From a virus, in IMG/VR virus record IMGVR_UViG_3300010885_081999, positions 1 through 64,000 of that record: a stretch of DNA of 64,000 nucleotides. The stretch is one strand, 5' to 3'. Shown one piece after another: positions 33,523 through 42,566 of the stretch. Made by a program: the position numbers and the translations under genes. Numbering within the stretch: position 1 is the stretch's first letter; each line of letters starts with the position of its first letter. Below the pieces are notes generated by a model. That model saw only the letters and a list, made by a program, of their open reading frames with translations. It did not search any database and had not been told where the DNA came from.

Positions 33523-34428
33523 TTATACAGCATCACGACGCACGTGGAGGCTGTCGAACTGAACGACGAGTCTCACTGAGTTGACAGCCCAGCCGAAGGT
33601 CCGAGGAATTTCGGTGGAAAGGTGGGCAAGGAATCGAAGGTCGAGTGTACCGTTCTTCACGGAGTCCGTGCTCCTCAGAAGACTGATGACCTTGAGGTCG
33701 CCATCACGAGGCAAGAAGTGTATCGAAGAGATGCACGTGTCGCTGTGGTAGTAGAACCGCCTCGAGTCGAGTCCTTGTGGCGCTCCATAGGGATTTTTCC
33801 CTGACATCTCGTCGTGGATCACTTCCTCGCACGACTTGAGGATGTCCAAGAAGTACTCGCCTTCGTGGGGATCGTTGAGGATGGAGGGATCCGTGTACTG
33901 AGGTGGGACGTCGAACTCCACGCGTGCCTGCACCTCTTGGTCCTTTGACAGGAAAGTACAGTGTCTAATCGTGTGACCAAACACCCCCGGAGATTGTTCC
34001 GAATATTCCTGGATGTCCCTGCTGACTTCTCGTGCCTGGTCCGACAGGGAAGCGTCCCTCGAGAGGACGAGGACGTTGGGAAGTGCGATGATCTTCGAGA
34101 CCTCTTCCTGGAAGATCCTGTAGAGTTTCAAGAGCGAAGCGTCGTCCTGGAACTCGTCGCCTCGTGAGCGTAGTCTCTCGAGGACGACGTTGACAGGAGG
34201 CATCAGGACGACGAGGAAGTTGTTGAGATCACAGAGCTCTTCGCGGAGGGCAGCTCGATGCTCCGCCTCAGGCCGTCCGTAGAGACGCGCATAGCACAGC
34301 ATCGAGAGGAAGGACCGGTCTTGAATGTTGTACTTGAACTTCGTTTCCTTGTGCAGGGCTGAATAGAGCGAAGTCTTGCCGCTGCAGTCCGGTCCCTCTA
34401 GAATGACGTATTTGATCGGAATGTTCAT
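33523..34428 (-). CDS. NMP kinase fused to a thymidylate-synthase/dCMP-hydroxymethylase-like domain
   Basis: N-terminal EGPDCSGKT and DRSFLS; C-terminal SRR...CISSIHF...LRSTDSVKNGTLD...DSLHV. Confidence 0.7.
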   Translation of the reverse strand: MNIPIKYVILEGPDCSGKTSLYSALHKETKFKYNIQDRSFLSMLCYARLYGRPEAEHRAALREELCDLNNFLVVLMPPVNVVLERLRSRGDEFQDDASLLKLYRIFQEEVSKIIALPNVLVLSRDASLSDQAREVSRDIQEYSEQSPGVFGHTIRHCTFLSKDQEVQARVEFDVPPQYTDPSILNDPHEGEYFLDILKSCEEVIHDEMSGKNPYGAPQGLDSRRFYYHSDTCISSIHFLPRDGDLKVISLLRSTDSVKNGTLDLRFLAHLSTEIPRTFGWAVNSVRLVVQFDSLHVRRDAV

Positions 34429-36752
34429 GCCATCTGCCTCATCTTGAAGATCGAAGTCGAGAAGCCCCACTGAGGATCGTGTTGTGCCTTGCCTACCCAC
34501 AGGGTGTAGGGTTTGATCTCCTCCTGCGGCGTGCCCCATACTCGAATCCACGCGATCCTAAACTCGTCGTCCATCGCTTTACAACGATAGAACGACTTTC
34601 CGTTCTTCGTCTTCTTCAGCTCGGCGGACGCCATGCAGAACCAGCCGATGCCCTCCGTGCCCGGCGGGATGTCGTGGAGGCGAGGCACTTCCTTCGACGC
34701 GACCTTCTCCATGATCTCGGGTGGAAAGAGGAGGTCTGCGTCGATCGTGGACGTGAGGTCGAAGCGTAGGTTGATCTTCTCGTCACGAGTCCAGTCCTCC
34801 GTTTCTGCGAGCTCCTCGAGGAGGAAGTCGACGATGGGAATCACGGGTTCACCGGCCTTCGCCTTCTTCTTCAGTTGCGATGCAGTGAGACCGTAGAGGC
34901 CCTTTCGGAGGGTCTCGTAGTTCTTTTCCTCGGTGAGTGCGAGGAGGAGCTGCCGATGATTCGCGATGCGGCCGTACTGGAAGTCCTCGAGGGACTCTAG
35001 GCCTTCGATCTGACACAGGGCGGAGAGCACCGTCTTGTTCACCTTGCTGTGTCTCCATTCGCCGGCGTCGTCGTACAGCATCCCCTTGAGGTCCTTATAC
35101 GGTCGGTTGACCATGATCTCCTCGACGGCGGCGTTTCCGATGCCCTTCACCGAACCGAGGGGCGGAACGAAGGCGTTGGCCTCGTCGGAGAAGTCCCACT
35201 GCTTGCCCGAGTAGTTGACGTCGTGCTTCGAGAAGCTGTATCCCAATGCCTTCACCTCGGAGATCACCTTGGAGAGCTCCTTGGGATTGGACGAGGCAGA
35301 CTGCAGGATCGTGGCGAGCCAGTCCTTCTCGTAGTGGGTGTGGAGCCATGCCGCGTAGTAGGAGTCGATGGCATAGGACACGGAGTGGGACTTGTTGAAG
35401 CCGTAGAGCGAGAAGAACTCGATCTTGTCGAACAGCGCATTGGTGATGTCTTCCGAGATTCCGTGGATTTCTTTGGCGCCCTTCACGAACTTCTCGCGGA
35501 GCATCACCTTCTCGCCCGACTTCTTGTCGAGTGTGTCGAGTGACTTCTTCACGAGCGTCTTCCTCATCTGGTCGGACTCGCCCGGTGAGAAACCGCCGAG
35601 CTCCACGGCGAGGCTCATGAACTGTTCCTGGAAGGCGATGAAGCCGCGGGTCACACCGAGCACCTTCTCGATGAGCGGATGGTCGTACTTGATGCCCTCG
35701 ATGTTCTTACCGGCGTCGACGTACATATTGTGGACGTTCGCCTTGAGGGGACCGGGTCGGTAGATGGCAGTGATCGCCGCGAGCTCGTCGATCGTGTTGG
35801 GCTTCGCCTGCATGCAGAACTTCCGGGCTCCGCTGGCAGTGAACTGGAAGACGCCGACGAAGCGACCTTCCTGGTACACGTGCTTCCACACCGCGGGGTC
35901 GTCCTGCTTCACGTATCGACAGTTGAGGTGCTTGTCGAAGAACGCCTTGACGTCGAGGAACGTCGGATCGGGATTGCCCTGCTTCACGAGGATGCGTCGG
36001 ATGCAGTTCTCGACGTCCTTGAGGAGGGTGAGTCCCAGGAAGTCGAACTTGAGGAAGCCGTTGTCCTCGAGGTTGCGGAAGTTCATGCCCTCGGTCCACG
36101 GAGTCTGAAGCTCGCCGCGGACGCCGATGATGGGCATCGTGGCGGACAACTCCTCGGGATCGGCGACGAGGACGCCGCCGGCGTGACGGCCCACGGATCG
36201 GTTCTGCATGAAGAGCGTGCTGATGTGGTCCTCGACCTCCGGGTACTTCTCCATGAAGGCCTTGTACTTCGGAGAGAACCTCATACAGTCCTCGTGCTTC
36301 AGGACGAAGACGGACTTCTCCTGGTCCTCGTCCCGGGCGAGAGGCTCGACCTCCGCTTGGAGCGGGCCTGTCACCTCATTCACCTCCTCGAACGGAATGC
36401 CGTAGATTTTTGAGATGTCCTTGACGAGGGACTTCAGCTTCAGGGTGTTGAAGTTGGACACGGGAATGACCGCGTCCTCACCGAAGAGATTTCGAGCTTC
36501 CTCGATCAACACGTCTCGATCTGCAGCATCAGAGTCGATATCGGGCCACGAAGTATTGTGTGTCAGTGCAAAGTCCTTGCCTACTGTTGACACAAAAAAC
36601 GTATGATCATTAGCAACCTCGATGTCGACGTATTCTTCAGCTTTGTCGCTAAAGATGACTTCTTCGATCTCTACTTCTTCAAACTCGAGAGTTGACAACA
36701 AGATTTTTTGTTCCTTTGTAGTTTCTGAATTCGAGATTTGGAATGACATCAA
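34425..36752 (-). CDS. dnaE: DNA polymerase III alpha, C-terminal fragment preceded by split-intein IntC (likely TTG start about 36701)
   Basis: YVDIEV..DHTFFV...THN then TSWPDIDSD, GRHAGG, KFDFLGL, YRPGP and YGFNKSHS. Confidence 0.92.
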   Translation of the reverse strand: MMSFQISNSETTKEQKILLSTLEFEEVEIEEVIFSDKAEEYVDIEVANDHTFFVSTVGKDFALTHNTSWPDIDSDAADRDVLIEEARNLFGEDAVIPVSNFNTLKLKSLVKDISKIYGIPFEEVNEVTGPLQAEVEPLARDEDQEKSVFVLKHEDCMRFSPKYKAFMEKYPEVEDHISTLFMQNRSVGRHAGGVLVADPEELSATMPIIGVRGELQTPWTEGMNFRNLEDNGFLKFDFLGLTLLKDVENCIRRILVKQGNPDPTFLDVKAFFDKHLNCRYVKQDDPAVWKHVYQEGRFVGVFQFTASGARKFCMQAKPNTIDELAAITAIYRPGPLKANVHNMYVDAGKNIEGIKYDHPLIEKVLGVTRGFIAFQEQFMSLAVELGGFSPGESDQMRKTLVKKSLDTLDKKSGEKVMLREKFVKGAKEIHGISEDITNALFDKIEFFSLYGFNKSHSVSYAIDSYYAAWLHTHYEKDWLATILQSASSNPKELSKVISEVKALGYSFSKHDVNYSGKQWDFSDEANAFVPPLGSVKGIGNAAVEEIMVNRPYKDLKGMLYDDAGEWRHSKVNKTVLSALCQIEGLESLEDFQYGRIANHRQLLLALTEEKNYETLRKGLYGLTASQLKKKAKAGEPVIPIVDFLLEELAETEDWTRDEKINLRFDLTSTIDADLLFPPEIMEKVASKEVPRLHDIPPGTEGIGWFCMASAELKKTKNGKSFYRCKAMDDEFRIAWIRVWGTPQEEIKPYTLWVGKAQHDPQWGFSTSIFKMRQMA

Positions 36753-37929
36753 ACAACTCCTGAGTCTTTAGGCTGTTATAGAAATCTTTCATATAGAGCA
36801 CACGAATGTTCAATCCGTCTGCCTTTAGCACTTCGAGAGCAAGCAAATTCTTCTCAAAGGCATGATCTCTTCTTCCTGCTTTCAGCTCTACATACTCGTT
36901 AGTATCTGGATGAAAGAAGTCCGGTGTGTAGCTTACTTCTGTTTCAGCGACTTTTACGGAGAAGGTCTTGTGTTCGTAATGAACTTCAATTCCTACATGA
37001 TTGCAGTAACGAAAGTAGTCAGCCTCGAGCGAACTTCTGAAGTAGATTCCTAAGTCAGAACGAACGCCAGATCGACCCCTAGAATAGAGTTTGATCTCTC
37101 CGCTTGATTGAGCTGCATACTGACACTTGCGTCCACAAAATCTTACCACAGACGTAGTGTACTTTTCAAAATTACTACCGCAGACTTTACATGGGACTAT
37201 CACTCTTGTTGCAGTTCGACTTGCATCCCTGGCACATGGGAGTGAACAGTATTTACGGTTGCTGCCTTCGATTACTTCGAAATTTGCGCCACATGAACTG
37301 CAAATCAGAGTGACGCGCTCTTTTTCGCTTGACTTAGCATACGACCGATTTTGGCATGCTCTCGAGCAATACTTCGATTGTTTCGCTAAACTGGGCGGTA
37401 ACGTGTAGTCTCTTTCACAGTAGTTGCACTTGAGCGTCATTGATGAAATTGACTTTTCTCTCCTTTTTGCACCTTTGCATTCTTTCGAGCAGTACTTCTT
37501 GTTGCAAGAACTGAAGCCTCCCTGTGTATGGGTGAAGGTGACAACGAAGTCCTTGTTGCAATGTTTGCATGTGAGAGATTTCGTGCTTGTGTTTCCCATG
37601 AATCTTCTCCGTTATGATTCACTGGGATACGTATCATGTCACGGAGACTTCTTCTTGACGAAGAGCAGCTTGTCGCCCTTCTTGAGGTCGGTCGTCATAA
37701 CTTCTTTCACTTCGCCAGCGCGACGGACGAGCCAGCGATGGTTTGGCGAGCATGAGAAATTCTCTCTCGAAGTCTTGATGACAGCATTGATGTCATGTCC
37801 TACATCATCTTCCTTGTCGATGACAGACTCATAAGTACCGCCATGCGTGAGGACCTTCTCTCCAAGGCCGAGGTCTTTGATGGGCTTGACTCCATTTTCT
37901 GTCAAGACAAGTGAGTCTTTCTGAAGACA
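36555..37929 (-). mobile_element. Split intein (IntN 37639-37929, IntC about 36555-36701) plus intervening endonuclease
   Basis: IntN begins CLQKDSLV with block B CSPNHRW; IntC ends HN/T; whole segment is lower in GC than the dnaE exteins. Confidence 0.88.
36679..37599 (-). CDS. Free-standing homing endonuclease: CxxC/YCSxxC Zn repeats + PD-(D/E)xK nuclease
   Basis: Four CxxC...(Y/F)CxxxC repeats; FRSSLE...YTPDF...YVELK. Confidence 0.8.
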   Translation of the reverse strand: MGNTSTKSLTCKHCNKDFVVTFTHTQGGFSSCNKKYCSKECKGAKRREKSISSMTLKCNYCERDYTLPPSLAKQSKYCSRACQNRSYAKSSEKERVTLICSSCGANFEVIEGSNRKYCSLPCARDASRTATRVIVPCKVCGSNFEKYTTSVVRFCGRKCQYAAQSSGEIKLYSRGRSGVRSDLGIYFRSSLEADYFRYCNHVGIEVHYEHKTFSVKVAETEVSYTPDFFHPDTNEYVELKAGRRDHAFEKNLLALEVLKADGLNIRVLYMKDFYNSLKTQELFDVIPNLEFRNYKGTKNLVVNSRV

Positions 37930-39405
37930 ACGGTGCCGACCGAGGAATCGGCTCCACAGGAGACCGTACGGAATCGGATCGATCTGGGTGATGCCGAGGA
38001 GGTAGTTGACGAGAGAACCGGGACCGCTGCCACGTCCGGGTCCGAAGAGGGTCCGCGTCTCGGCACGCTTGAAGATCTTGTACATTGTCACGAAGTACGA
38101 GGCATGACCCAGGTACTTGATGTCGGACAGCTCGGACTTCGCTCGTTCGACGTACTCGGGCTTGTCCACCATTCCCTCGCGGACGAGTCCCTCCTTGACG
38201 AGGTCGGTGAGCTGCTGGAATGCGGTCCTCTCAGGAGTGTCGAGCTTCGGGAGCTTCGCCTTGACATCGACCCAGGTGTCCTCGCAGTTCTGCCAAGCGA
38301 GGTCGTGGGTCCGCTCGATCGCGTCGCGGACCTCCTCCTCAGCACCTCGGTAGAAGTCGTAGGAGTCGTACGACGACTTGAACTCGTCCCACATCTGGGT
38401 GGCGTTCTTGGGATACAGCTCGCACTTCAGGTCCTCGAACTTGGGCAGCGCCGTCTGATCCAGCTTCGCACCCATCCAGCCGAGCTTCTTGTAGAGCTCG
38501 CGGGCCTGCCATTTGGAGGGATCGGGATAGTGGGCATCGCAGGTGGCGATCAGCTTCACGCCGCTTCGTCGAGACAGGTCGATGAGGTACTTGTTCACCA
38601 CGTGCTGCTTCGGCAGCTTGTTGAACTGTAGCTCGAGGAAGAAGTTGTCACGACCGACCGCGTCGGTGAACCTGTCGGTGAGGTTCTGCAGCTCACTGAT
38701 GATCTGATCGGATGTCTTACCGTACGCCTCGCCGCGGAGGATCGTGCCGCTGTAGATGCCGCCGAGGCACGCCGTCGACCAGATGATGCCCTTACCCCAC
38801 TTTCGGAGGAGGTCGAAGTCGATGCGAGGATAGCGGTAGAAGCCGTCCTTGAAAGACGCCTTCACGAGGCGGTTGATGTTCGCGAGACCCTCGGCTGTCT
38901 GGGCGACCGCGACGAGGTGGTATCGACGCTGCCAGTCGGGCTTCTCCTTGTAGTCGTCCGACTTGGTCTCTGCCTCGTCCTCGACGACGTGGCCTCCCGC
39001 CTCCTCTTCCTCTGCGACCTCGTCTGCGTCGACGTCCGTCCGGACCTTCGCCTTCTTCTCAGCTTCGGCCGCGGTCTTCGCGTCCTTGATCGACTGCTTG
39101 TGTGCTTCGTAGTCGAGCTTCCACTGTGCGAGCGAAGTAACAAAGTAGAACTCCACGCCGTAGAGCTGTCTGTACTTCACGCCCTTCTTCTGCAGCTTCT
39201 TTGCCGCAGAATGTGCATGGGCGAGACCGTTGCCGTTGCCGTGGTCGGTGAGGGCCCACGCGTCCTGCCCTTGCGACTCGGAGGTCACGAACTTCACGTG
39301 ATCCTCGGGATACCCGAGGCCGTCGAATGTCGAAAATCCGCTGTGATTGTGGAAGGAAACGAACTTCTGGGGAGGGCGAATCAGATCGACGGGACGATTT
39401 GACAT
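37639..39405 (-). CDS. dnaE: DNA polymerase III alpha, N-terminal fragment (PHP domain) fused to split-intein IntN
   Basis: HNHSGFSTFDG, TDHG, CDAHY, GPGRGS, LLGITQIDP and LLWSRFL, then a 96-aa IntN. Confidence 0.92.
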   Translation of the reverse strand: MSNRPVDLIRPPQKFVSFHNHSGFSTFDGLGYPEDHVKFVTSESQGQDAWALTDHGNGNGLAHAHSAAKKLQKKGVKYRQLYGVEFYFVTSLAQWKLDYEAHKQSIKDAKTAAEAEKKAKVRTDVDADEVAEEEEAGGHVVEDEAETKSDDYKEKPDWQRRYHLVAVAQTAEGLANINRLVKASFKDGFYRYPRIDFDLLRKWGKGIIWSTACLGGIYSGTILRGEAYGKTSDQIISELQNLTDRFTDAVGRDNFFLELQFNKLPKQHVVNKYLIDLSRRSGVKLIATCDAHYPDPSKWQARELYKKLGWMGAKLDQTALPKFEDLKCELYPKNATQMWDEFKSSYDSYDFYRGAEEEVRDAIERTHDLAWQNCEDTWVDVKAKLPKLDTPERTAFQQLTDLVKEGLVREGMVDKPEYVERAKSELSDIKYLGHASYFVTMYKIFKRAETRTLFGPGRGSGPGSLVNYLLGITQIDPIPYGLLWSRFLGRHRCLQKDSLVLTENGVKPIKDLGLGEKVLTHGGTYESVIDKEDDVGHDINAVIKTSRENFSCSPNHRWLVRRAGEVKEVMTTDLKKGDKLLFVKKKSP

Positions 39406-40160: not shown

Positions 40161-41153
40161 TCAGGCCGGAAAGTGCTGCAGCAGGTCCACTTTCTTTGCG
40201 GCTGCCTCGTCGAGGTACTTCAGCGGGTTGTAGTCCTCGGATCCCCTGATCCACTCCAGGGTCTCTCGAATACCCTGCGACAAATCAAGTTCTGGTTTCC
40301 ACCCAAGCTTTTCCCTGATTTTCTGAGAGGACAATCGGTGGTTACCGAGGTAGTCCGTCTTGGGATGCCACACCAGCCGTCCGCTCGTGCCAGGGAGGTG
40401 GGCATCGACTTCGGACACGACCTCGGACGCGGGACGGGCAGTCTCCGCCGCAACGTTCCAGTCGGTTCCCCATCCCTGACCCATGGGATCTCGGCACACG
40501 ACCTCGATCGCCTTGCAGAAGTCCGACACGTGGAGGTAGTCCTTCACCTTGGTGGGATCGAGGAACATGTCGATCGAAGGTCGACCTTTCAGGGAGGCAT
40601 AGATCGACTTCGCGATGAGGGAGTTCATGTCACCGAGACCTCCGAAGGCGAAGAGGGGACGCACGATCGTCCATCGATTCGCCATCGCGGTGACGATCTG
40701 CTCGGCCGCGAGCTTCTGGACGCCGTAATATGTCCGCGGGCACTTGTCAGAGGCTTCCGTGATCCACTCGTCCTGGTATTTCGGAGTATCGTAGATCACC
40801 GTCGTGCCGAGGTAGCAGACAGCCGCCTTGGCCCTGTTCGCAGCCCGGACGATGTTGTAGGTGCCTTGCACGTTGGAAAGCACAGCTTCCTGAGGATCGA
40901 GCGCGACGACGTCTGTACCTACGACGGCCGCATTGTGCACGACGACGTCGATGTCGTTACCGTAGAGAACGTTGTACCATGCATCTTCTGAGTTCTGCCA
41001 GATGCATGCCTCCCCCGTCTTCGGAACCTTCTTGGGTTCTGCTGCGTCGGAGAAGAGCTCACCGTCAGTGACGACCTCGTGCTTACGAGACTCGAGGACG
41101 ACCTTGAGGTTGCGTGAGATCAGCCCGTTTTGGCCCGTGATGTAGAACTTCAT
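40161..41153 (-). CDS. Divergent NAD-dependent NDP-sugar epimerase/dehydratase
   Basis: ITGQNGLIS, HNAA, YGVQK and DYLHVSD; start MKFYITG. Confidence 0.85.
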   Translation of the reverse strand: MKFYITGQNGLISRNLKVVLESRKHEVVTDGELFSDAAEPKKVPKTGEACIWQNSEDAWYNVLYGNDIDVVVHNAAVVGTDVVALDPQEAVLSNVQGTYNIVRAANRAKAAVCYLGTTVIYDTPKYQDEWITEASDKCPRTYYGVQKLAAEQIVTAMANRWTIVRPLFAFGGLGDMNSLIAKSIYASLKGRPSIDMFLDPTKVKDYLHVSDFCKAIEVVCRDPMGQGWGTDWNVAAETARPASEVVSEVDAHLPGTSGRLVWHPKTDYLGNHRLSSQKIREKLGWKPELDLSQGIRETLEWIRGSEDYNPLKYLDEAAAKKVDLLQHFPA

Positions 41154-41170
41154 TGTACCTCCATCATAAA

Positions 41171-41206
41171 CGGCTCGGGCGGCCATTTTCACAGCCGCCC
41201 GAGCCG
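41171..41206. promoter_or_regulatory. 13-bp inverted repeat overlapping the epimerase promoter
   Basis: CGGCTCGGGCGGC-N10-GCCGCCCGAGCCG. Confidence 0.55.
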
Positions 41207-41214
41207 AAGCTATC

Positions 41215-41670
41215 TCACTCAATTTCCTTGTCGTACGGTTCGTAGAGCATCTTTCCTGCGGCCTTGCTGCGATCGAGATAATCCTCGAGCTCTTCGAATG
41301 AAGTACACACGCGTGCACCTGATCTACTCAACATGAGGTTGAATTTTGCTCCAGCTGGGAGTCCGGCGCAGAAGTAGATGATGTGCTTGTCGAAGGCTGT
41401 TGCATATCCGCACTCCATGATAGTGCCCAAGTCCTTATCGCGAGTGTTGACGACAAGGAAGTCAGATTCGCGGATGTGTTTCAAATTACCCTGATAAGTC
41501 GCATCCTGAACCTCACGGGAAGCATTTGGTGGGCAAATGAAGATTCGTCGTGGAGACGCCATGTCAATCCAGTCCTTACGTGCCTCCATGATTTGTTCGA
41601 GTCTGGTGAGCTCGGCGTCTTGAACGGGGTTGAACCAGCCTGCGGCGAGGTACATCTTTTTGCGATTCAT
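41215..41670 (-). CDS. Nucleoside 2'-deoxyribosyltransferase / nucleotide N-glycosidase (NDT/MilB/Rcl family)
   Basis: YLAAGWF, SPR, DLGTIMECGYA and NLML. Confidence 0.8.
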   Translation of the reverse strand: MNRKKMYLAAGWFNPVQDAELTRLEQIMEARKDWIDMASPRRIFICPPNASREVQDATYQGNLKHIRESDFLVVNTRDKDLGTIMECGYATAFDKHIIYFCAGLPAGAKFNLMLSRSGARVCTSFEELEDYLDRSKAAGKMLYEPYDKEIE

Positions 41671-42566
41671 CTTTGATTTGCCTTTCTAGTTGTGTATTCC
41701 AATAGTAGCATGTCTTTATCAATTGAACAACGTGACTGTTTACGCACGTTGTCAACTGCAGGAATGAATTCTAAGTTAGAAATGTCACCAATGACTTCTG
41801 GTGGCAGGCCTTGCCTAAAGCCTTCGGCAACAGAGAACTTGTGATCTAGGTGATACTCACCTCGCTTATCGTGGTTGTCGAGTTGATCTATCGGTTGCAT
41901 ACGAGTGAAATGATCAACTCTTCTTCTATAGTCCTGAAATTCAGGTAGATCATCGACGTACTGTTGCCAAGTTTTTCCATGCGTCTTGAGCAGCTTCTTG
42001 TCCATAGAAGAAGAGATAAACGCTGGCGATAAGACGATGTTGTGCACTCCAAACTTTTCGACACAAGTTTCTTCTGCTCGAGATCGTAGAATAGGAGATT
42101 CGAAAGTCGATGGGCCACCCCATCTATCAGTCATCGTTTGGCGCCGCCGGGCAAGCACTTCGGGATTTTCAATCGGAGACTTATAGCCGTATCTCTTCAA
42201 ATTTGTCTCTTCGATCTTGGCCCTAAACTCTTCCGTCTGAGAGTAAACATCGACTCCATAACGCTCGCGAGTAGTCTTCTTCGACTTCTCTTTGGTTGAG
42301 TCAAGCTCAAATGTGCTAGCAACACCATACTTTCTAATGTTGTTATTTTTGCGTTTTTCTTTTATCTCATCGCAAGACATTGGAAAGTCTGTCCCGTGCT
42401 TCTCTAAACTCTTCTTTCGACGAAGCTCGTATGTGATACCGCCTTTCTTCTGGGCAAGGTAGATGCACTCTTTCGAGCAAAAGAAGAAGCCAGATTTGTT
42501 GCTAAGCGGATTCTTTGGCACGAATATCGTCTTGCACTGCGAGCAGATTTTCTCTTTCATCGCCAA
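41667..42566 (-). CDS. Putative HNH homing endonuclease with KYG repeats (lower GC)
   Basis: CSQC/FCSKEC, repeated (K/R)YG units, YHLDHKFS...SNLEFIPAVDNVRK. Confidence 0.72.
   Translation of the reverse strand: MAMKEKICSQCKTIFVPKNPLSNKSGFFFCSKECIYLAQKKGGITYELRRKKSLEKHGTDFPMSCDEIKEKRKNNNIRKYGVASTFELDSTKEKSKKTTRERYGVDVYSQTEEFRAKIEETNLKRYGYKSPIENPEVLARRRQTMTDRWGGPSTFESPILRSRAEETCVEKFGVHNIVLSPAFISSSMDKKLLKTHGKTWQQYVDDLPEFQDYRRRVDHFTRMQPIDQLDNHDKRGEYHLDHKFSVAEGFRQGLPPEVIGDISNLEFIPAVDNVRKQSRCSIDKDMLLLEYTTRKANQR

Follow-up and report, generated by a model that had tools for sequence, protein, structure and literature searches.

The stretch of viral DNA analysed here, henceforth the window, comprises the first 64 kb of the 103,725-bp IMG/VR virus record IMGVR_UViG_3300010885_081999, which is rated 32% complete. 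Within it the gene for DnaE, the alpha subunit of DNA polymerase III (Pol III alpha), lies in two pieces: three co-oriented minus-strand genes encode the N-terminal part of the polymerase (dnaE-N), a free-standing endonuclease and the C-terminal part of the polymerase (dnaE-C), and the two dnaE pieces carry, at the break, the N- and C-terminal halves of an intein (IntN and IntC). We are fairly sure that we are dealing with a fractured dnaE from a phage that is uncultured and probably large, in which a cassette insertion would have split the intein, trans-splicing would rejoin the polymerase and homing would spread the element.

Anatomy of the fractured dnaE locus

The features of the locus are as follows (all on the minus strand; aa, amino acids; nt, nucleotides).

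37639–39405 (–): dnaE-N, 588 aa, made up of a 492-aa N-extein and a 96-aa IntN
37930–39405 (–): dnaE N-extein, 492 codons, PHP domain and start of the palm domain, C-terminal end FLGRHR
37642–37929 (–): IntN, 96 codons, with the Cys1 codon at 37927–37929 and block B S-P-N-H (CSPNH) at 37738–37749
36688–37639 (–): 952-nt endonuclease cassette, sitting inside the intein Cys codon (TG^C), as defined by alignment with the related locus L004
37595–37625 (–): RNA hairpin at the endonuclease start, in which CCCAGUGAAUC pairs with GAUUCAUGGG
36679–37599 (–): free-standing homing-endonuclease gene, 306 codons
34425–36749 (–): dnaE-C, starting at ATG 36749; 65-aa IntC, Thr+1, 709-aa C-extein
36555–36749 (–): IntC, 65 codons, consisting of a 21-codon leader (36687–36749) and a 44-codon acidic core (36555–36686)
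34425–36554 (–): dnaE C-extein, 709 codons and stop, starting TSWPDIDSD, with Thr+1 at 36552–36554 and the catalytic PDID at 36534–36545

The N-extein matches the Pfam PHP domain (1.6e-23), and the C-extein, in which PDID is followed by the fingers, helix-hairpin-helix (HhH) and C-terminal domains, matches DNA_pol3_finger (1.9e-35) and HHH_6. Two further profiles are split at the break: PF07733 (positions 2–98 in the N protein, 96–260 in the C protein) and phrog_405 (42–439 and 441–1028, respectively). As both divide cleanly between the two open reading frames (ORFs), the split is not due to chance. The insertion point, GRHR/TSWPDID (here and below, slashes mark intein boundaries), is located in the palm domain and precedes the catalytic PDID by four residues. 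IntN has a Lys-rich C-terminal tail (...KKKSP) and is closed by the dnaE-N stop codon, TGA 37641–37639. The IntC core contains block F (DIEVANDHTFF) and block G (THN) and ends in ...DIEVANDHTFFVSTVGKDFALTHN, with the Asn codon at 36555–36557; the IntC leader is coded by the 3′ end of the endonuclease gene, although in a different frame.

The coordinates and sequences given in the initial annotation, made from the letters alone, are all correct. Its reading of the N gene as a 492-aa extein ending in FLGRHR, followed by a 96-aa IntN with CSPNH and then a stop, holds to the base, as does its IntC ending in THN before TSWPDIDSD (709 aa); the only change that we make is to start dnaE-C at ATG 36749, which has AGGAG 7 nt upstream, in preference to TTG 36752 of the ORF list, yielding an IntC of 65 aa. 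The joined product of approximately 1201 aa that it foresaw agrees with the sum of the exteins (492 + 709 = 1201) and with the uninterrupted homologues of loci L005, L006 and L008, which lie in open frames of ~1200 codons. It was likewise right to set the site apart from that of the cyanobacterial split DnaE: the latter position reads YGFNKSH in the C-extein, uninterrupted, rather than Y/CFNKSH. Finally, the stop that it reported at 37639 is genuine. N proteins of 588 aa and endonucleases of 306 aa, identical to those of the window at 90% or more of positions, are found on several independently assembled contigs (JGI, ENA, Logan) of up to 145 kb, and the position of the IntN stop is repeated in L009 and in more diverged loci; the stop codon is therefore not an assembly error.

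That the locus is nonetheless mis-assembled or decaying, with an erroneous stop or a polymerase that is a pseudogene, is an idea to which we give almost no credence. While the source is a metagenome-assembled record of low completeness, the 90%-identity clusters of both proteins span several independent assemblies, the same arrangement is present in ten IMG/VR loci, and purifying selection acts on exteins, intein and endonuclease alike.

A 952-nt cassette interrupts the intein Cys codon

Aligned with L004, which carries the intein in contiguous form, the window stays in register through ...TCT CCG TG, then has 952 extra bases (37639 to 36688), after which homology resumes at C GAG TTT GAA; where the window has the cassette, L004 has an uninterrupted TGT codon. 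Removing the 952 nt in silico gives CCG TGC GAG, that is P-C-E, as in L004, and the cassette junctions of L009 are identical to those of the window. With the first base of the cassette, TG becomes TGA, which ends IntN. Next comes GGAG, separated by 7 nt from the endonuclease ATG, and then, in the 3′ end of the endonuclease gene, AGGAG, again with a 7-nt spacer, ATG 36749 and the 21 IntC leader codons, such that the endonuclease gene and IntC overlap by 71 nt. This layout is what Dassa et al. (2009; PMC2677866) proposed, namely an invading element from which the upstream gene obtains its stop and the downstream gene its start. The Shine-Dalgarno sequence, ATG and leader of IntC are conserved in L009, and all other lineages have them too. 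Both intein and cassette are compositionally foreign to dnaE: the exteins have a G+C content of 0.60 and 0.59, compared with 0.50 for IntN, 0.43 for the cassette and 0.41 for the IntC core, and in L004 the value is 0.44 for the intein versus 0.59 for the exteins.

The start of the endonuclease gene is locked in a hairpin (37595–37625; -14 kcal/mol, z -3.4; 1 of 200 shuffled sequences folds equally well), with the Shine-Dalgarno GGAG in the loop and the AUG in the stem. Analogous hairpins that pair the AUG are found in L009, L010 and L014, with the changes in L010 and L014 preserving the pairing, and in L012 the AGGAG is sequestered in a perfect 9-bp stem (z -4.5); no hairpin was found in the endonuclease leader of L086. 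The 5′ leaders were folded singly, the RNAalifold consensus being weak (4 pairs) and the hairpins not positionally aligned. Hairpins of this kind were reported by Dassa et al. for 15 of 16 loci, and were linked to translational attenuation of the Aeh1 endonuclease (PMC2677866). The three genes are likely co-transcribed: we found no terminator-like sites between them on the minus strand, and promoter-like sites occur at chance level (3 found as compared to 2.6 expected).

Since excision of exactly 952 nt restores both the frame and the Cys codon seen in L004, one could imagine that the cassette is removed as an RNA intron, or bypassed in translation, and that a contiguous precursor then splices in cis. 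We consider this very improbable: an Rfam search of 36400–38000 with E up to 1 detected no group I intron, group II intron or other RNA family, and a dedicated Shine-Dalgarno sequence, ATG and leader for IntC would be pointless were the cassette spliced out.

The intein halves probably splice in trans

All residues expected of a class 1 intein are present in the window: Cys1, SPNH, the D..H of block F, THN and Thr+1. In an alignment of homologues at this site, comprising 15 N halves and 10 C halves, there is no variation in Cys1, the block B His or THN, and the +1 residue is always Thr or Ser. The inteins are only 27–50% identical between lineages, yet the splicing residues do not vary and block F is kept as (I/V)D(I/L)xV..D(H/K/E)(T/S)F. 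The window's IntN shares 78% identity with the N-terminal part of the L004 mini-intein, and its IntC core shares 82% with the corresponding part. Purifying selection acts on both intein and endonuclease, as judged by the proportions of nonsynonymous (pN) and synonymous (pS) differences: comparison of the window's intein with those of L004 and L009 gave a pN of 0.13–0.15 against a saturated pS of 0.78–0.82, and for the endonuclease the values are 0.22 and 0.82, respectively.

The intein has few close relatives. In a library of 1.84 billion representative proteins we found only three (P0083, P0084 and P0085), P0083 (588 aa, 77% identical) being the cluster of the window's own N protein, and the remaining 228 matches are generic inteins of at most 46% identity. 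The Pfam Hint_2 score is 16.8 bits as compared to a cut-off of 28.4. When the L004 intein was used against the PDB, the matches included the DNA polymerase intein 9hth (E 9e-5), gp41-1 (E 3.7e-3) and AceL NrdHF (E 8.9e-3). The last 30 residues of IntN have a net charge of +5 and the IntC core one of -11, a complementarity that suits electrostatic capture of one half by the other.

From these residues and their conservation we conclude that the intein probably splices in trans. Alternatively, the intein halves could be splice-dead and act as a non-covalent clasp that holds the two DnaE pieces together, as happens with the NrdA fragments of phage Aeh1. That the product of a gene fractured by a homing endonuclease can assemble non-covalently is documented (PMC3045599), and the strong charge complementarity of IntN and IntC would fit a clasp too. 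However, every splicing residue is present and has stayed invariant across lineages as diverged as those above, and the near-identical L004 allele, being contiguous, must splice in cis if an active polymerase is to be made; a clasp is thus unlikely.

The endonuclease is a candidate third nuclease type of fractured genes

The 306-aa endonuclease consists of four CxxC...CxxxC zinc (Zn) ribbons (residues ~9–159) followed by a nuclease domain (residues 175–306) with the motifs E192, P226-D227 and E238-x-K240 (E-PD-ExK). We collected 82 homologues, all of them metagenomic; the shorter ones do not have the first of the window's four ribbons. Invariant in the 59 that were aligned are the Cys pairs of the shared ribbons, R180, S189, E192, A193, R197, F213, Y224, P226-D227, E238 and K240. 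The profile of the family matches T7 endonuclease I (1m0d; E 1.5e-5), with SxLE, YTPDF and VExK aligned; the window's protein itself scores 23.4 bits against PF05367, below the cut-off of 29.1 bits, and some homologues carry a precomputed PF05367 match.

In the AlphaFold2 (AF2) model of the endonuclease, built with the alignment (predicted local distance difference test, pLDDT, 87), the nuclease domain has the restriction-endonuclease fold as judged by a fold search, the matches being TnsA (Z 7.2), I-Bth0305I (3r3p; Z 7.0), Bax1 (Z 6.1) and Vsr (1cw0; Z 6.1). The four are effectively tied, and point to a common superfamily rather than to any one family. A Foldseek search with the whole model returned nothing at E 1e-3 or better, and T7 endonuclease I was not among the best 50 VIA-align rows, which is uninformative either way.

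We also considered whether the protein belongs to the Vsr-like EDxHD type, a family defined by a conserved catalytic His, and rejected this assignment: the 59 homologues have an invariant Lys in ExK and no conserved His after PD. A profile comparison with a Vsr-like endonuclease of locus L003 aligned the Zn-finger region only. The family gave no sequence match to 3r3p, a negative that is uninformative, since the Vsr-like L003 positive control also missed 3r3p in the PDB; it is therefore the motif argument that carries the exclusion of EDxHD. On its motifs, the endonuclease would be a third nuclease type in the fractured-gene architecture, next to the two types, GIY-YIG and Vsr-like, that were described in 2009.

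The family is uncharacterised and its members are known only from metagenomes. An IMG/VR scan with the single protein as query found nothing, the relatives being recovered by the alignment-based scan, and among 50,697 GenBank phage records there is no full-length relative, only a Zn-finger stretch in Halobacterium phage ChaoS9. The window's record has one copy of the gene. Family members also occur away from inteins: loci L015–L084, many of them AT-rich viral contigs, encode free-standing three-ribbon relatives of ~255 aa and have no intein, and in most of these loci the gene directly follows an NAD-dependent epimerase-like gene with the ending ...YNPLKYL..A...DL..FFPK. That epimerase-like gene is present in the window as well, at 40161–41318, and in L007 a member of the family lies between the epimerase-like gene and dnaE.

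The window holds a second free-standing homing-endonuclease-like ORF at 41667–42566 (–), encoding 299 aa (phrog_3339, DUF7487). At the N-terminus it has a CxxC...CSxxC ribbon of the type that also occurs in the dnaE endonuclease, and a homologue of this phrog_3339 ORF lies upstream of dnaE in L005.

One dnaE site in four states

Related loci were collected by scanning IMG/VR with the N protein and with the alignment of the endonuclease protein as queries. Among these relatives the same dnaE site is seen in four states: empty, occupied by a contiguous intein, split, and fused. GenBank phages contributed nothing comparable: megablast of the locus against them gave no match, and the best DnaE matches in tblastn were below 30% identity, with none reaching into the intein.

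The site is empty in L005, L006 and L008, where an uninterrupted dnaE reads FLGRHR/VSWPDID or FLNRQK/VAWPDID. The +1 residue is thus Val in empty alleles, and it is Thr or Ser in those that bear the intein. Thr is isosteric with Val, which plausibly explains how a Thr nucleophile is tolerated beside the active site. A contiguous 141-aa mini-intein occupies the site in L004 (...KQKSP-C-EFEEVEIDEV...ALTHN/TSWPDID), and contiguous inteins are likewise found here in P0088 and P0117, two proteins from metagenomes. The split form with the same endonuclease family is found in ten IMG/VR loci (L009–L014 and L085–L088) that represent four or five diverged lineages, the endonucleases being 66% (L009), 45% (L010, L011 and L014), 45% (L012 and L013) and 40% (L085–L088) identical to that of the window; in L085–L088 the site reads FLNPHR/C...THN/SGAPDID. 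With these split and contiguous forms, an intein at this position is common in metagenomic data.

The fused state is represented by P0093, a protein of 1371 aa encoded on one 6.6-kb JGI contig, which has IntN, the nuclease domain of the family (residues 511–658) and IntC in a single frame; its nuclease part aligns with the endonuclease family at an hhalign probability of 99.8% (E 5e-29). Going by this alignment, P0093 would carry, at the same dnaE site, an intein into which a PD-(D/E)xK endonuclease domain is fused in frame; to our knowledge, it would be the first intein whose endonuclease domain belongs to neither the LAGLIDADG nor the HNH type. The protein has a second intein near its C-terminus, with an in-frame Vsr-like domain.

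It is possible, and we advance this only tentatively, that in this group a single orthologous dnaE site, together with a single endonuclease family, preserves every stage of the proposed life cycle of inteins and their endonucleases: the empty site, the mini-intein, the intein split by an endonuclease gene, the precise loss or gain of the cassette, with a cis-splicing intein as the outcome in otherwise nearly identical surroundings (L009 versus L004), and the in-frame fusion of the nuclease (P0093). In the same tentative vein, the protein with Zn ribbons and E-PD-ExK may represent a new family of homing endonucleases that read DNA via modular ribbons.

Other interruptions of dnaE were seen in the same collection. 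In L003 (L003:1101-8785; IMGVR_UViG_3300023179_008461), dnaE is distributed over four ORFs, cut by three different split inteins, each with its own free-standing endonuclease gene bearing the Vsr-like motif E-x-D-G-D-(F/Y)-(F/W)-H. The sites are WPDID/SDAGD, TRGFM/...N/CFQEQ and YGFNK/...N/SHSVSY, and the first pair is oddly split, with an IntN of ~190 aa and an IntC of ~20 aa. P0085, P0090 and P0114, from other metagenomic phages, are N-terminal fragments of dnaE that start with the IntC of an upstream intein and end with the IntN of the site studied here; the further upstream intein of such fragments is found, for example, at ...VHN/SGAGSL, 32 residues before this site. From this layout, multiply fractured dnaE is therefore common in the group.

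Descent and exchange of the element

Window and L009 are ~64–72% identical in the extein, 77–82% in the intein and 66% in the endonuclease; L010 and L014 are 81–84%, 86–95% and 89% identical, respectively; and for window and L086 the values are 47–48%, 33–50% and 40%. Extein, intein and endonuclease thus diverge in step from lineage to lineage, which means that the arrangement is old and has for the most part been passed on together with dnaE.

Exchange has left its trace in relatives. The split locus L009 and the contiguous locus L004 share a tract of ~2 kb with ~95% nucleotide identity, centred on the intein, the ends of the gene being 60–80% identical, and synonymous divergence (dS) between them is 0.09 in the intein as compared to 0.51 in the first 300 codons of the C-extein. 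Such a pattern marks a recent exchange in the region of the element, within which the cassette was gained or lost precisely.

Proposed origin and mechanism

We propose the following scenario. A class 1 mini-intein similar to gp41-1 would have been present in the palm domain, four residues before PDID, when a 952-nt mobile cassette later inserted into the intein Cys codon, at the usual position of an intein endonuclease domain. The cassette would have brought the IntN stop, the hairpin-locked endonuclease gene and, for IntC, a ribosome-binding site, ATG and the 21-codon leader. The three genes would be transcribed together, the basic IntN tail and the acidic IntC would associate, and trans-splicing via Cys1 and Thr+1 would yield a DnaE of 1201 aa with the junction ...GRHR-TSWPDID. 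The four Zn ribbons of the endonuclease would recognise DNA and its E-PD-ExK nuclease would cut it, probably in alleles without the cassette or without the whole intein, whereupon repair would copy the element in.

Several points weigh against this scenario. A single-sequence AF2 model of the L004 mini-intein has a pLDDT of 41, leaving the assignment of the HINT fold to sequence matches alone. In many inteins a Thr at +1 is less nucleophilic than Cys or Ser, so that splicing may be slow. We deduce splicing, endonuclease activity and the structure of the transcript from sequence. The closest extein relative of the window is the empty-site locus L006, and in a comparison of the two identity drops at the site by no more than it does elsewhere along the gene; this comparison does not support recent homing into the window's own genome. 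Furthermore, DnaE may not be the sole polymerase of the phage, given that the incomplete record contains, outside the window, a 404-aa ORF (G000:C1:70070-70699 (–)) with a match to a PolA-family profile (40 bits, profile positions 111–350 of 381).

Comparison with known systems

The co-oriented ORFs that together cover one enzyme, the IntN and IntC at their ends and the endonuclease ORF that has its own start and overlaps IntC all characterise the class of fractured genes described by Dassa, London, Stoddard, Schueler-Furman and Pietrokovski in 2009 (PMC2677866), of which the locus appears to be a genuine and well-preserved member; that this architecture had already been reported was also recognised in the initial annotation. 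The 2009 report describes three fractured DnaE loci (DnaE-1 to DnaE-3), with three integration points that are all unlike the cyanobacterial one. The initial annotation took the site and the intein pair of the window to be possibly new, but the insertion point may coincide with one of these three. Shared with those loci are the metagenomic source, a host gene for replication of phage origin, a hairpin before the endonuclease start, an overlap between the 3′ end of the endonuclease gene and the start of IntC (6–69 bp in 15 loci there, 71 nt here) and the length of IntN, which at 96 aa falls within their range of 88–105. Unlike theirs (33–54 aa), the IntC of the window is 65 aa long because of the 21-aa leader, and while their nucleases are GIY-YIG or Vsr-like (EDxHD), the one found here has four Zn ribbons and E-PD-ExK. 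Here, moreover, empty, contiguous and split alleles of one site have all been found in related phages, constituting a natural series with which the gene-breaking model of 2009 can be tested directly. The gene-breaking cassette also supplies the stop, start and ribosome site that keep both halves expressed, and the ~2-kb tract of high identity illustrates how such elements mark the boundaries of genetic exchange between phages.

For cellular Pol III alpha, the intein sites given by Novikova et al. (2016; sites a–g) fall chiefly in the fingers and otherwise in the PHP domain, as opposed to the palm site of the window. Among solved inteins, the split intein gp41-1 (PDB 6riz, 6qaz) is one of the closest to the L004 allele (residues 5–130), and the two share Ser as the first residue of block B (SEEH in gp41-1, SPNH here), the ...H-x-F of block F and the THN end. 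The host gene and site are different, the +1 residue here is Thr, and the similarity is low (E 3.7e-3). The window thus offers a naturally split intein of the Cys1/Thr+1 kind, related to gp41-1, that could serve as an orthogonal means of ligating proteins and for which the cis-splicing sister allele L004 would be a ready positive control.

The cyanobacterial split DnaE (Ssp, Npu) belongs to the same host protein family, and there, as we propose for the window, Pol III alpha is rejoined by trans-splicing. It differs in having its site in the fingers (Y/CFNKSH) and its halves at unlinked loci, without an endonuclease gene. Its intein has Cys+1, an acidic IntN and a basic IntC, a charge polarity opposite to that of the window.

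As for the nuclease, T7 endonuclease I (PF05367; PDB 1m0d, 2pfj) has SxLE, PD and ExK catalytic motifs that align with those of the window's family, but is a 149-aa junction resolvase without Zn ribbons. I-Bth0305I (PDB 3r3p) likewise combines an N-terminal DNA-binding region with a C-terminal nuclease of the restriction-endonuclease fold, the match extending over 83 residues with a root-mean-square deviation of 3.6 Å at the Z of 7.0 given above, and EDxHD homing endonucleases also occur between split-intein halves. The active-site signature sets I-Bth0305I and the EDxHD enzymes apart from the present family, with its ExK Lys and without their His. What the locus contributes is this endonuclease family and the allelic series at its site, the architecture itself being already known.

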